From: Eledone cirrhosa
Taxonomy: Eukaryota
Assembly: GCA_964016885.1 (NCBI GenBank)
Contig: OZ024765.1
Span: forward strand, 15,934,001-15,998,000
Length of the DNA: 64,000 nt
Direction: 5' to 3'
Both the position numbers and the translations under genes were made by a program. The notes beneath the pieces are model-generated. The model saw nothing but the letters and a program-made list of their open reading frames with translations. It was not told where the DNA came from and did not search any database. Below are positions 19,995 through 23,005 of the stretch, piece after piece (the stretch's first letter is position 1; every line of letters begins with the position of its first letter).

Positions 19995-20149
19995 TTCATT
20001 ATTTCTGAAGACGGCATATATATGTGTTTGGTATGTATATTTAATTTTGATAGTTTGTATAATTTTGTATAATTTTGTACATAGATCTGTTGAATATGCA
20101 TGCCAATTCTAACACATATATATCCTAGAAACGATCGTTAAATAATGAA
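19995..20149 (+). ncRNA. Type I hammerhead ribozyme with ~115 nt extended stem II (family C)
   Basis: 10 bp stem I TTCATTATTT/AAATAATGAA; core CTGAAGA (20005-20011); stem II ATATATATGTGTT/AACACATATATAT and TGGTATGTATATT/AATATGCATGCCA; then GAAAC-GATC-GTT. Confidence 0.75.
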
Positions 20150-20210
20150 CTTTTTTTGTTTAATATAAGGAACTGTTTCATTGTTTTATTCATTATTTTT
20201 TTAATATTTT

Positions 20211-20256
<46 letters not shown>

Positions 20257-20344
20257 AATAAGACGATTTGTTATACCTTCATTGCGTTTATTGATTCTAT
20301 TTCTGCTAAATTATATATATACATATATATAATTATCCTCTATG

Positions 20345-20575
20345 GTCCCACTCATTCACGAATGACCATGGTGTTGCCGCTAGACACTTTCCCTCCGAGG
20401 TACAAGCCTGAGTAAGGTGTTTTGTGGAAGACCAGTAGTCGCCCTTCCATACCAGTAGTCGCCCTTCCATACCAGTCTCCCCTCTCCACGCCATCGATGA
20501 TGTCCAAGGGAAAGGCTATGGCTGATACAGCTCGGTACCAGTGACGCCGCAACTCATTTCTACAGCTGAGTAAAC
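20345..20575 (-). mobile_element. 3' part of an octopus-type SINE (OK-like), 5'-truncated
   Basis: CCAAGGGAAAGGC..GATACAGCT..CCAGTGACGCCGCAACTCATTTCTACAGCTGAGT resembles an Octopus SINE from memory and overlaps the copy at 52940. It has an internal 20 bp duplication. Confidence 0.65.
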
Positions 20576-20657
20576 ACATGTATACGCATACATTCATACA
20601 CACACACACACACAAACACACAAACACACACACACACACACACGTATATATATATAT

Positions 20658-20785
20658 AGGGAAAGGTTCAGGAGCCCGATGGCAGAGCTCAAACCGTTTC
20701 GGCGGCTATTTCTGGAGCAGTTCAGAAATAGCCGTCGAAACGGCTTGATCTCTGGTCCACCTGGTTCCTTACTACACTTCCTTTG

Positions 20786-20787
<2 letters not shown>
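20658..20787 (+). mobile_element. Family A fold-back with internally deleted tail
   Basis: CCGTTTCGGCGGCTATTTCTG..CAGAAATAGCCGTCGAAACGG followed by GGTCCACCTGGTTCCTTAC; TA flanks. Confidence 0.75.
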
Positions 20788-20836
<49 letters not shown>

Positions 20837-21351
20837 ATATAATTTAAAGGTTATATACAAATAAACTAGCCAAAGTCATAGATACATATATATGTTTTTG
20901 GCAACCATTCACGGTGTGGCTCAATGAAGAATTAATTAAATAATTAATAATCAGAGCAATATATAAAAAAGTCCATAGAATCATTAGATAAAATATATAC
21001 AGTATTTCTCCTCCAAATCAGCATACATCAACCACACAAAACATCATTTAAACGAGGCTATAATTTTAAAATGTACTTATAAAGAAACACTAGATAAATG
21101 ATATAGCTTCTTATAAACGACTTATAGCTACAACAAATTTTACCTAATATTTCTATTAGCCTGTAAAAATGTACTAGACTTATAGTTAACTATACATAAT
21201 TAGGTACAGAATCAAAGTTAGAAGAAATAATGTACATAAACCTTACCAAAATCATCAAAATATCTCTACCACCCGGCGGTTTCATTCCATTTTGGGATAT
21301 ATCCGATCTTGGATAAATCAACGAGGTTTTGAATTGACTCTATGGACTTAT

Positions 21352-21397
<46 letters not shown>

Positions 21398-21434
21398 GTA
21401 TGTATATACATACATATATAATGTATGTATGTGT

Positions 21435-21657
21435 TTGTATATAAAAGGAAAGCACAAACAAGGGTCAAAACCCCTCTTTAGTTATCTGTTGGAGCTCTCC
21501 GACATTTCAAGACATTAACCGCATTGTCTGTAAATCGTTGAAACATCTGAGACCGCCACCAGACAACTGAGGAAGGGACCTGTCCCTTGTTTGTGCTTTC
21601 CTATTATTTCTAAAAACACTTCATCAAGAAACCACACACCCCCTTGTTTATTCTAAA
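21435..21657 (+). mobile_element. Decayed fold-back element with right-hand tail
   Basis: Arms AGGAAAGCACAAACAAGGG / CCCTTGTTTGTGCTTTCCT; inner GAAA(C/T)(G/A)TC half-sites on both arms. Confidence 0.55.
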
Positions 21658-21782
21658 TATATATCTAGTGAGTCGGTTGCTTTTAGCTTCTTGATTAACT
21701 CACGTGACTATGTTTTCACATAATCTGATTGTCAATGAATGTGATTCTCGATATTCAATATTCATTCATGATTTTATTACAG

Positions 21783-21823
21783 ATTTCTCACGTAAAAGAA
21801 GGGAGACAATTCATGGCATCAAT
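21783..21823 (+). CDS. Candidate 41 nt internal exon ((D)FSRKRRETIHGIN)
   Basis: Acceptor ATTTTATTACAG and donor GTAAGT in a non-repetitive island; the open frame contains RKRR. No neighbouring exons were established. Confidence 0.25.
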
Positions 21824-22466
21824 GTAAGTACAGCAAACACCATATCTAGAATGTTTATAATGTATTGACATTTCTGTTTCATATGCTATTGTTTATGTTT
21901 GTTTGTTTCTTGTTGTTTTGAGAGGTATTTCTATTTCGCTGCAATGCACATGTGACATTTTATTTCCGTCTCCTTCTGGCGGACAATTTATTTACATATT
22001 TGTTAATATGTTTGTTTTTCTTCTACCATTAAACATCCGAAGGTTTTATGACAATAATAAAAGCTGCATTTGGGACTAGATTAGATTGACTATATGTTTG
22101 TATTAAGATTTGAATGCCTTCTCACGACACCCAATCTAAAATGGCATCTATTGCTTTGACTATAGACTTGTATATAAACGCTTTGTTCAGCCAGTAGTTA
22201 TTTTCTTTTACAGTAATTACGCTGCTTAATCCCGATTGGTCATATGGTGCAACGCGTAGTTTGGGTGACTACATCTTCTTCTTTTCGTACCTTCGAAGCA
22301 TGTGGTTATATGACAGTTTCCCATTTCTTTACACAGTCCTTTGCATTATTATTAAATTCTGCAAGATCTTTTAAGCTGCACTGGTTGGGTAGTAGAGGGC
22401 AAACATGAAAAACGATGAAAAATGAACGCTAAAATGATATCATCCGCCATTTTGTTTTAGTTGAAA

Positions 22467-22645
22467 TAATTGTTTCTACTTTAGGCACAAGGCCAGCAAT
22501 CAGCCAGTGCATTACTGGTACTTTATTTTATCGACCCCGTAAGGATGAAAGGCAAAGTCAACCTCGGCCGGATTTGAACTCAGATCGTAAAGGGACGTAA
22601 CTATGCTGGAAAGCATGGCGTCCGACGCTCTACCGATACTGCCAA
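22467..22645 (-). mobile_element. tRNA-derived SINE (2851 family)
   Basis: Full-length reverse complement of the 2851 unit. Confidence 0.88.
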
Positions 22646-22734
22646 TAATATCTCACATTATATATACATACACACACATGCATATACATATATATATGTA
22701 TATATATATATATGTATTTATATATATATGTTTG

Positions 22735-22781
<47 letters not shown>

Positions 22782-22866
22782 CAAAAAAACATTTGATTGA
22801 TTTGTTCTTCAATTACCTCCAGATAAGATCATAGAACTCAATTTACTATTGATTTTGAATAACATT

Positions 22867-23005
22867 TTCATTGCTTTTGACAACGTCTGATGATATACAC
22901 GTAGGTAAATATATTCGTTATTTGATATTTTGTAACTAACCCTACATAGATCGATAACGAAATATGCGTACGATTATCACCTAGAAACGATCGTAAAGCA
23001 GTGAA
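22867..23005 (+). ncRNA. Family C long-stem-II hammerhead, U3-A8 core variant (TTGACAA)
   Basis: Stem I TTCATTGCTT/AAGCAGTGAA covaries with the 19995 copy; stem II includes TTCGTTAT/ATAACGAA; same CCTAGAAAC-GATC-GT(A). Confidence 0.65.

Follow-up and report, generated by a model that had tools for sequence, protein, structure and literature searches.

The subject of this analysis is a stretch of 64,000 nt from the genome of Eledone cirrhosa (GenBank assembly GCA_964016885.1, contig OZ024765.1, positions 15,934,001 to 15,998,000, forward strand), called the window below. Its interval 19995–23005 holds two hammerhead ribozyme motifs, copy A and copy B (Table 1). By direct reading, both have a complete type-I hammerhead core and the type-I layout, i.e. 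three helices round the core with helix I open, both ends of the RNA lying in stem I. The copies are separate 3′-end stubs, devoid of open reading frames (ORFs), of two different families of Penelope-like elements (PLEs), and both were inserted in (TA)n. We consider it likely that they are the 3′-terminal hammerhead modules of these families, predicted to self-cleave the RNA of the element, probably as a dimer. What we describe is a long-stemmed form of a known retroelement ribozyme, not a new ribozyme class.

An earlier note on this DNA had presented the motifs as hammerheads of diverged parent elements, and both are indeed complete in the core and fold better than shuffled sequences. The z-scores of the minimum free energy (MFE) are −6.9 for copy A and −4.7 for copy B, none of 200 shuffles folding equally well; the hammerhead-constrained fold of copy A stands at −45.2 kcal/mol, compared with an MFE of −46.5 kcal/mol. 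Aligned to each other, the copies have a mean column identity of 74%. They have in common the 15-mer CCTAGAAACGATCGT, for which 0.04 occurrences were expected and two were found (two or more in 0 of 100 shuffles). A covariance model was seeded with A- and C-type genomic copies (see below); copy A scores 169 bits in it by construction, and copy B, which was outside the seed, 50.8 bits (E about 1e-11).

Stem I has 10 bp in both copies, and two adjacent pairs in it differ on both strands, A-U in one copy corresponding to G-C in the other and U-A to C-G, just as the note had claimed. The swap that it saw in the core, C3-G8 in copy A for U3-A8 in copy B, can also be read directly, and its description of U3-A8 as a tolerated natural swap agrees with a documented natural variant (PMC4209133). 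These compensatory changes in stem I and core are norms of whole families, not private to the two copies. A stem II of more than 100 nt had been claimed for both. This is true of copy A (116 nt), whereas helix II of copy B has exactly 100 nt; it has decayed by a deletion and a G-to-U change relative to the norm of its family, most members of which have 107 nt. Helix III consists in both copies of 2 bp and a GAUC loop, too short for stability in a monomer.

In the species' own genome, sampled by patterns and by locus, a long helix II was found in four families: A, C, B1 and B2 (Table 1). All of them have the junction C-(G/A)-G-C ... (C/U)-C-U-A, GAA-ACGAUCGU does not vary, and each family norm keeps 9–10 of the 10 stem I pairs. 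Among 150 distinct copies, positions 3 and 8 are matched in 146 (U3-A8 in 79, C3-G8 in 67), the others being C3-A8 (3) and U3-G8 (1); H17 is either A (120 copies) or U (30 copies), never G or C. Covariation was assessed in a model-aligned set of 89 matches (five of them spurious hairpins) from 70 sources. Here 92.6% of the paired cells hold pairs, compared with 78.9% in shuffles and 24–54% with slid partners. Family-level double changes, of the kind that the earlier note had proposed to look for in genomic homologues, affect 2 pairs of stem I and at least 9 pairs of helix II, and within family A one helix II pair appears as A-U, G.U and G-C. The apex of helix II (UUGAUA.UUUGUA ... UACAUAGAUC) is conserved in sequence across families, beyond what pairing requires, which hints at a further role.

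The parent elements could be recognized in the genome. A pattern search of the 3.0-Gb assembly with a 26-mer that spans the copy A cleavage site gave 9,610 matches with at most one mismatch (0 with the reversed control), many of them in minus-plus pairs about 270–300 bp or 4–12 kb apart. Seven pairs of the 4–12 kb class were sampled. All seven bound elements with inverted arms of 0.5–2.1 kb (89–100% identity), and the open frames of these elements encode a reverse transcriptase (RT) end followed by a GIY-YIG nuclease. At locus L080 (G000:C1:183742001-183752000) a family-A unit of 6,672 bp stands in tandem, the two units being 99.9% identical. In full elements about 300 nt separate the hammerhead from the downstream RT + GIY-YIG ORF of the next unit, and its distance to the 3′-end of the inserted element is 50–210 nt. 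Because the hammerhead is near the 3′-end of a unit and, in tandems, upstream of the next ORF, we assign it to the position of a pseudo-long terminal repeat (pseudo-LTR). PLE insertions are typically truncated at the 5′-end, form partial tandems, may lie next to an inverted copy that is itself 5′-truncated, and can have a tail of 30–40 bp. This anatomy is seen here as tandems at 99.9% identity, inverted arms, head-to-head stubs and alternative 3′-ends 42 bp apart. A DNA transposon with long terminal inverted repeats was considered and dropped on reading the RT + GIY-YIG ORF and the tandem units.

The L080 frame of 830 aa carries, as read by eye, VRWR, SDKT, YRDD, a linker CNCRNKANC (CxCX5C) and GIY..YIG at the C-terminus. 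An 82-aa piece of its RT returned 34,499 candidates; all 150 scored ones were 100% identical, and many matches fell in 830-aa open frames and in arrays spaced 6.7–6.9 kb. Judged by such near-identity, the family-A element is very young. Neither the 830-aa ORF nor the ORFs of the seven elements sampled first gave a Pfam domain; the RTs of these PLEs go undetected by RVT_1. Among database proteins the closest show 36–48% identity to the 830-aa ORF, the two named ones coming from a cephalopod and a ctenophore, and in a protein atlas the ORF met look-alike clusters only, named HTH_animal, DUF8422, GIY-YIG and RVT_1.

A second autonomous lineage carries the B-type hammerhead. The B-type 25-mer has 2,382 genomic matches (0 with the reversed control), and in each of the three B-type pairs sampled there is PLE ORF sequence inside the pair, so oriented that the hammerhead follows on its 3′ side. 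An intact ORF of 844 aa in one of these pairs is 42.5% identical to the 830-aa ORF and has the same motifs (SDKT, VRWR and a linker CNCRRASGC, read by eye); a B2-type hammerhead lies 3.3 kb downstream of it. As regards the endonuclease motif CCHH, we counted two Cys residues between GIY and YIG in the 830-aa ORF and one in the 844-aa ORF. When the two lineages were compared by blastn, their hammerhead regions gave no match, so a recent swap of the module between them is unlikely. Core, stem I and the long imperfect hairpin of helix II are kept in the four families and in both autonomous lineages at 42% protein identity. The module has thus diverged together with its elements with core and fold kept; this is good evidence, from comparison of sequences, and it supports selection that acts on the hammerhead fold, though not specifically on cutting.

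Copy A (19985–20211/20253) is 96–99% identical to the terminal arms of five of the elements, which are 5–8 kb long (L062–L066), and 90–93% to L061 and L067. It has (TA)n on either side and two alternative 3′-ends, 20211 in the short form and an optional extension to about 20253. The 5′ edge of copy B is sharp, at 22776, and adjoins (TA)n; the 3′-ends of its family, B1, are at 23053 (short form) or about 23200–23240 (long form). The repeat family of copy B had 1,308 candidates in the first genome search. A near-identical copy is also found in contig sets X4 (2 differences) and X5 (0 differences).

Table 1. Features of the window, norms of the four long-helix-II families and features of the parent element L080
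Feature	Position	Strand	Sequence or state	Basis or remark
Copy A: hammerhead + tail stub of the young family-A PLE, 5′-truncated, ORF-less	19975–20253	+		arm identity
Hammerhead A, type I	19995–20149	+	C3-G8	direct reading, folding, covariance model
Hammerhead A, stem I	19995–20004 / 20140–20149	+	TTCATTATTT / AAATAATGAA	10 Watson–Crick pairs
Hammerhead A, core	20005–20011	+	CUGAAGA (DNA CTGAAGA)	
Hammerhead A, helix II	20012–20127	+		
Hammerhead A, G12–A14	20128–20130	+	GAA	
Hammerhead A, helix III + loop	20131–20138	+	ACGAUCGU (AC-GATC-GT)	
Hammerhead A, H17	20139	+	U (DNA T)	predicted cut 20139/20140
Copy A, tail repeats	20177–20186; 20189–20198	+	TTCATTGTTT; TTCATTATTT	each can pair 10/10 with stem I 3′ strand
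Copy B: hammerhead + tail, family-B1 element	22776–23240	+		92–96% identity to other scored copies
Hammerhead B, type I	22867–23005	+	U3-A8	direct reading, folding, covariance model
Hammerhead B, stem I	22867–22876 / 22996–23005	+	TTCATTGCTT / AAGCAGTGAA	9 Watson–Crick pairs + one U.G
Hammerhead B, core	22877–22883	+	UUGACAA (DNA TTGACAA)	
Hammerhead B, helix II	22884–22983	+		
Hammerhead B, G12–A14	22984–22986	+	GAA	
Hammerhead B, helix III + loop	22987–22994	+	ACGAUCGU	
Hammerhead B, H17	22995	+	A	predicted cut 22995/22996
Copy B, tail repeat	23034–23043	+	TTCATTGTTT	can pair with AAGCAGTGAA via two G.U pairs
Sister-family hammerhead	43693–43762	−		helix II about 27 nt
Sister-family hammerhead	43901–43970	+		helix II about 27 nt
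Sister-family hammerhead	44164–44228	−		helix II about 27 nt
Sister-family hammerhead	59259–59326	−		helix II about 27 nt
Sister-family hammerhead	59447–59515	+		helix II about 27 nt
Family A norm			stem I UUCAUUAUUU / AAAUAAUGAA; H17 U	core CUGAAGA
Family C norm			stem I AUCAUUAUUU / AAAUGAUGAA; H17 A	core CUGAAGA
Family B1 norm			stem I UUCAUUGCUU / AAGCAGUGAA; H17 A	core UUGACAA
Family B2 norm			stem I AUUAUUGCUU / AAGCAGUGAA; H17 A	core UUGAAAA
L080, hammerheads	1336–1489 and 8008–8161 of L080			
L080, open frame	1789–4278 of L080		830 aa	
L080, internal tandem repeats	5400–7400 of L080			about 2 kb

Several points weigh against reading the motifs as self-cleaving hammerheads of PLEs. Rfam detected no hammerhead family in the whole window at the gathering score, and none in 19500–23500 at E-values up to 10. 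The earlier note had expected standard scans to miss the motifs on account of their very long stem II. Missed they are, but the long stem is not the sole cause, because sister hammerheads with a short stem II, in 43650–44260, are likewise unmatched by Rfam at E-values up to 10. The pair 10.1-11.1 beside the core, canonically G-C, is C.A in both copies and in 4 of 4 family norms; it is followed by G.U or A-U, by G-C and, three pairs beyond it, by a mismatch (C.C, or C.U in family B2). No loop–loop contacts could be named for either hammerhead. As to covariation, the alignment was fitted to a structure model, A-U to U-A swaps within AU tracts may reflect a shift of register, and the four families represent only about three independent splits. 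All covariation of stem I and core falls on a single one of them, A + C versus B1 + B2, and independent covariation events are therefore few. The parents fit membership in the Hydra clade of PLEs by DKT, RWR, CxCX5C and (TA)n flanks, a fit judged from motifs read by eye and not from a phylogeny. In published work, minimal hammerheads of PLEs showed weak activity in vitro (PMC4209133). Mutating the core in one PLE left in vitro insertion unchanged, and RNA-seq of that element gave no read with its end at the cut site (PMC11167929).

A further point of this kind comes from the genomic copies. We found 7,627 family-A copies with the exact first 25 nt past the cut site; G16.2 is in place upstream in 7,516 of them, and 111 deviate. 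Thus, at least 98.5% of the copies holding these 25 nt run across the cut site, i.e. their templates were uncut or re-joined there. The earlier note's claim of selection on ribozyme function in the parent elements is upheld for the fold, and for cleavage it has this figure against it. Thirty of the 111 deviants were inspected: 10 were intact with a mutated G, 9 had inverted or recombined junctions and 11 were simple 5′-ends, which extrapolates (11/30) to about 41 of 7,627 copies with a simple 5′-end at most 3 nt from the cut site. A control site 20 nt downstream had 29 deviants in 5,466 copies (4 simple ends, 7 point mutants, 17 inverted or rearranged, 1 unclear). Simple 5′-ends are about 7-fold commoner at the cut site than at the control site, a ratio that comes from a single control site and small counts in A/T-rich flanks; the excess is suggestive as a trace of cleavage.

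It is conceivable, though improbable, that the module is kept as a structured platform at the 3′-end for recognition or priming by RT, built of the long hairpin and a tail hairpin, and that the hammerhead-like core is a non-cutting relic or passenger. In each of the four families the tail motif TTCATTGTTT, 27–38 nt past stem I, can form 10 of 10 pairs with the 3′ strand of that stem. The resulting hairpin could be an alternative that competes with the active fold, or the motif may serve RT as a start signal. The platform would be at ease with the passage of nearly all copies across the cut site, with the C.A pair at 10.1-11.1, with a helix II apex and a TTCATTGTTT motif conserved in sequence and not in pairing alone, and with insertion in vitro that is independent of the hammerhead (PMC11167929); the idea that hammerheads merely parasitise PLEs was raised in PMC8557442. 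It fits less well with the compensating double substitution at 3-8, a pattern that catalysis would lead one to expect and that protein binding by itself leaves unexplained. Every core position is intact in four families and in lineages at 42% protein identity, H17 is never G, and the cut site has an excess of simple 5′-ends, all of which speaks against the platform as well.

That the family of copy B is a retrozyme-type non-autonomous element, spreading via small circular RNAs produced by double hammerhead cleavage, we regard as very improbable. In its favour, B1 copies measure only about 280 or 465 bp and in most loci have a sharp 5′ edge equivalent to 22776, and family C has a common 5′ edge 305–310 nt upstream in 10 of 17 comparisons; animal retrozymes have been proposed to derive from the pseudo-LTRs of PLEs (bioRxiv 10.64898/2026.07.22.740005). 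However, both window copies are single, not tandem, leaving one cut site per transcript, and do not form the head-to-tail short tandem units with hammerheads by which retrozymes are recognized. Autonomous PLEs, moreover, also end in B-type hammerheads.

There is next to no chance that A and B are the two pseudo-LTRs of a single PLE spanning 19995–23005. They have the same orientation and are 2.9 kb apart, a spacing reported for some PLEs (PMC4209133), but copy A belongs with most family-A arms (96–99%) and copy B with family B1 (92–96%). A tblastn search of the whole window with the 830-aa ORF (E up to 1e-3) found no trace of a PLE ORF between them or elsewhere, Pfam no domain in the window ORFs, and the largest open frame between the motifs has 117 aa. 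The interval also contains other repeats, including a tRNA-like short interspersed element (SINE). One element bounded by both motifs was thus excluded, by the family difference and by the lack of a PLE ORF in the window. The SINE-type repeat occupies 22465–22646, its tRNA-like part being on the minus strand as judged by eye, and recurs in many sampled genomic loci in both orientations; ARAGORN found no tRNA in 19000–24000.

Just as negligible is a chance origin from hairpins that carry CUGANGA and GAAA in AT-rich, microsatellite-rich DNA: the covariance model does match many (TA)n hairpins of the window at 12–45 bits, a 146-nt palindrome included, but these matches are without the core, an exact 15-mer common to both motifs has an expectation of 0.04, and the motifs recur thousands of times while reversed controls give 0.

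With 3′-terminal modules that self-cleave as the preferred reading, the mechanism could be as follows. The RNA would cleave itself after GUU in copy A or GUA in copy B. Cofolding two copies pairs both ACGAUCGU stretches, in A and in B (−10 kcal/mol for the duplex alone), and two such 8-nt palindromes, in tandem units or in two RNAs, may together make the extended helix III seen in double hammerheads. Cutting would serve to trim read-through or multimeric transcripts, the long helix II would be retained for a further role, and most new insertions would be copied from RNA not cut at this site. We offer tentatively, and hold doubtful, an extension in which helix II is a selected insert in a working ribozyme and makes up, together with TTCATTGTTT, a switch between self-cutting and delivery of the whole template to RT. 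If that were true, the excess of 5′-ends would be a fossil record of in vivo hammerhead cleavage in an animal retroelement. The genome offers a very young and very abundant PLE lineage, whose nearly identical ends number in the thousands, together with sister lineages that have the same odd ribozyme. It is a natural series for asking whether the core cuts, what the long hairpin is for and whether cut RNA is ever reverse-transcribed. Descriptor and Rfam scans under-count such motifs.

Many of these features are published for PLEs: hammerheads in pseudo-LTRs, U3-A8, opposite-strand pairs and a helix III of dimer type (PMC4209133), as well as targeting of (TA)n and insertion in tandem or inverted form (PMC8557442). 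The minimal type-I hammerheads of PMC4209133, including the U3-A8 variant of the Cercyon PLEs of Schistosoma mansoni, are also located in the flanking repeats of PLEs. As here, truncated elements have left them scattered in thousands of copies, most of them solitary, and they also occur in opposite-strand pairs (100–700 bp apart there); they have U3-A8 in place of C3-G8, families rich in compensatory changes and a short or absent helix III with a palindrome, which was read as dimeric action. The differences concern helix II (6–8 bp there, 100–116 nt here), stem I (4–5 bp there, 10 bp here) and the 10.1-11.1 pair (a highly conserved G-C there, C.A here). A helix II of about 100 nt did not turn up for any hammerhead in the literature searched, where 'long helix II' means about 6 bp. 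Only the >100-nt helix II looks new.

The Hydra clade of PLEs is defined by DKT instead of DKG, the RWK motif, CxCX5C, (TA)n targets and the absence of the endonuclease CCHH (PMC8557442). Its elements share with ours the C-terminal GIY-YIG, DKT, CxCX5C, insertion in (TA)n and a hammerhead close to the 3′-end. The Neptune or Nematis clade, at first suggested by the zinc-finger-like linker, was dropped in view of this description of the Hydra clade. We compared six rows of File S2 of PMC8557442, three labelled PLE/Hydra and three named Penelope-. As here, the rows have a CUGAAGA core followed by an extra base, and most have an extra base before GAA, so that 10.1-11.1 is not G-C; in 3 of 6 there is a T on both sides of stem II and no G-C pair. 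Unlike the long helix II here, stem II in the rows has 4–7 bp with loops of 4–8 nt; stem III has 3–4 bp with loops of 1–3 nt, compared with 2 bp here. The published Hydra-clade elements are <3 kb, whereas the family-A unit has 6.7 kb with about 2 kb of internal repeats.

Double hammerheads of newt satellites and viroids also have a monomer helix III that is too weak and is extended between two copies (PMC6155905). They belong to tandem satellite or rolling-circle RNAs and have a short helix II; the copies described here, in contrast, are dispersed retroelement ends for which action as a dimer is predicted only. Metazoan non-LTR retrozymes, non-autonomous repeats thought to depend on PLE enzymes, have type-I hammerheads as well (PMC7229834, bioRxiv 10.64898/2026.07.22.740005). 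In the same sources they are tandem repeats giving small circular RNAs, whereas the window copies are single stubs known from DNA alone.

The five sister-family hammerheads of the window (Table 1) follow the plan UGUAUUUUAU-CUGAAGA or CUGAUGA ... UGAAA-UAUAUAU-A-AUAAAAUA, and four of them make up two minus-plus inverted pairs, 120–140 bp apart. The base of their helix II, GGC...CC, agrees with that of the long-stem families down to the C.C mismatch, and the tail motif TTTCCATTTGTTTAATAT occurs in both. Because of this shared base, mismatch and similar tail motif we read the long helix II as an expanded hairpin: the 100–116 nt would have arisen by expansion of the roughly 27-nt helix II of the sister families.

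Some side observations concern the rearrangement of the elements. Among the 30 inspected deviants a fusion, CTTCAG-AAATAATGAAC, recurred five times; in it the 5′ half of the hammerhead, inverted, is joined to the tail via stem I complementarity. Ten of 23 distinct A-type copies end within the 5′ strand of stem I, which is thus a hot spot of 5′-ends; six of the ten are head-to-head inverted junctions. Family-A stubs often occur as head-to-head inverted pairs with the junction 3–6 nt upstream of C3 (L032, L042, L055, L057 and L059). Inside the B2-type element of locus L173 we saw, at 1534–2984, nested inverted fragments of a third PLE lineage, the endonuclease end of which is 57–67% identical to the 830-aa ORF.

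Diverged relatives of the internal repeats of L080 fill 16587–17800, 18079–18607, 37429–38235, 46606–47517 and 48907–49541 of the window. The palindrome mentioned above, at 13935–14080, is near-perfect and centred on (TA)n, with an MFE of −96.6 kcal/mol; the covariance model picked it up as a hairpin only, without a hammerhead core. Rfam matches in the window were limited to chance microRNA-like ones in (TA)n and one to RF00026 (67.5 bits), which marks a U6 spliceosomal RNA gene or copy at 9297–9405 on the plus strand.

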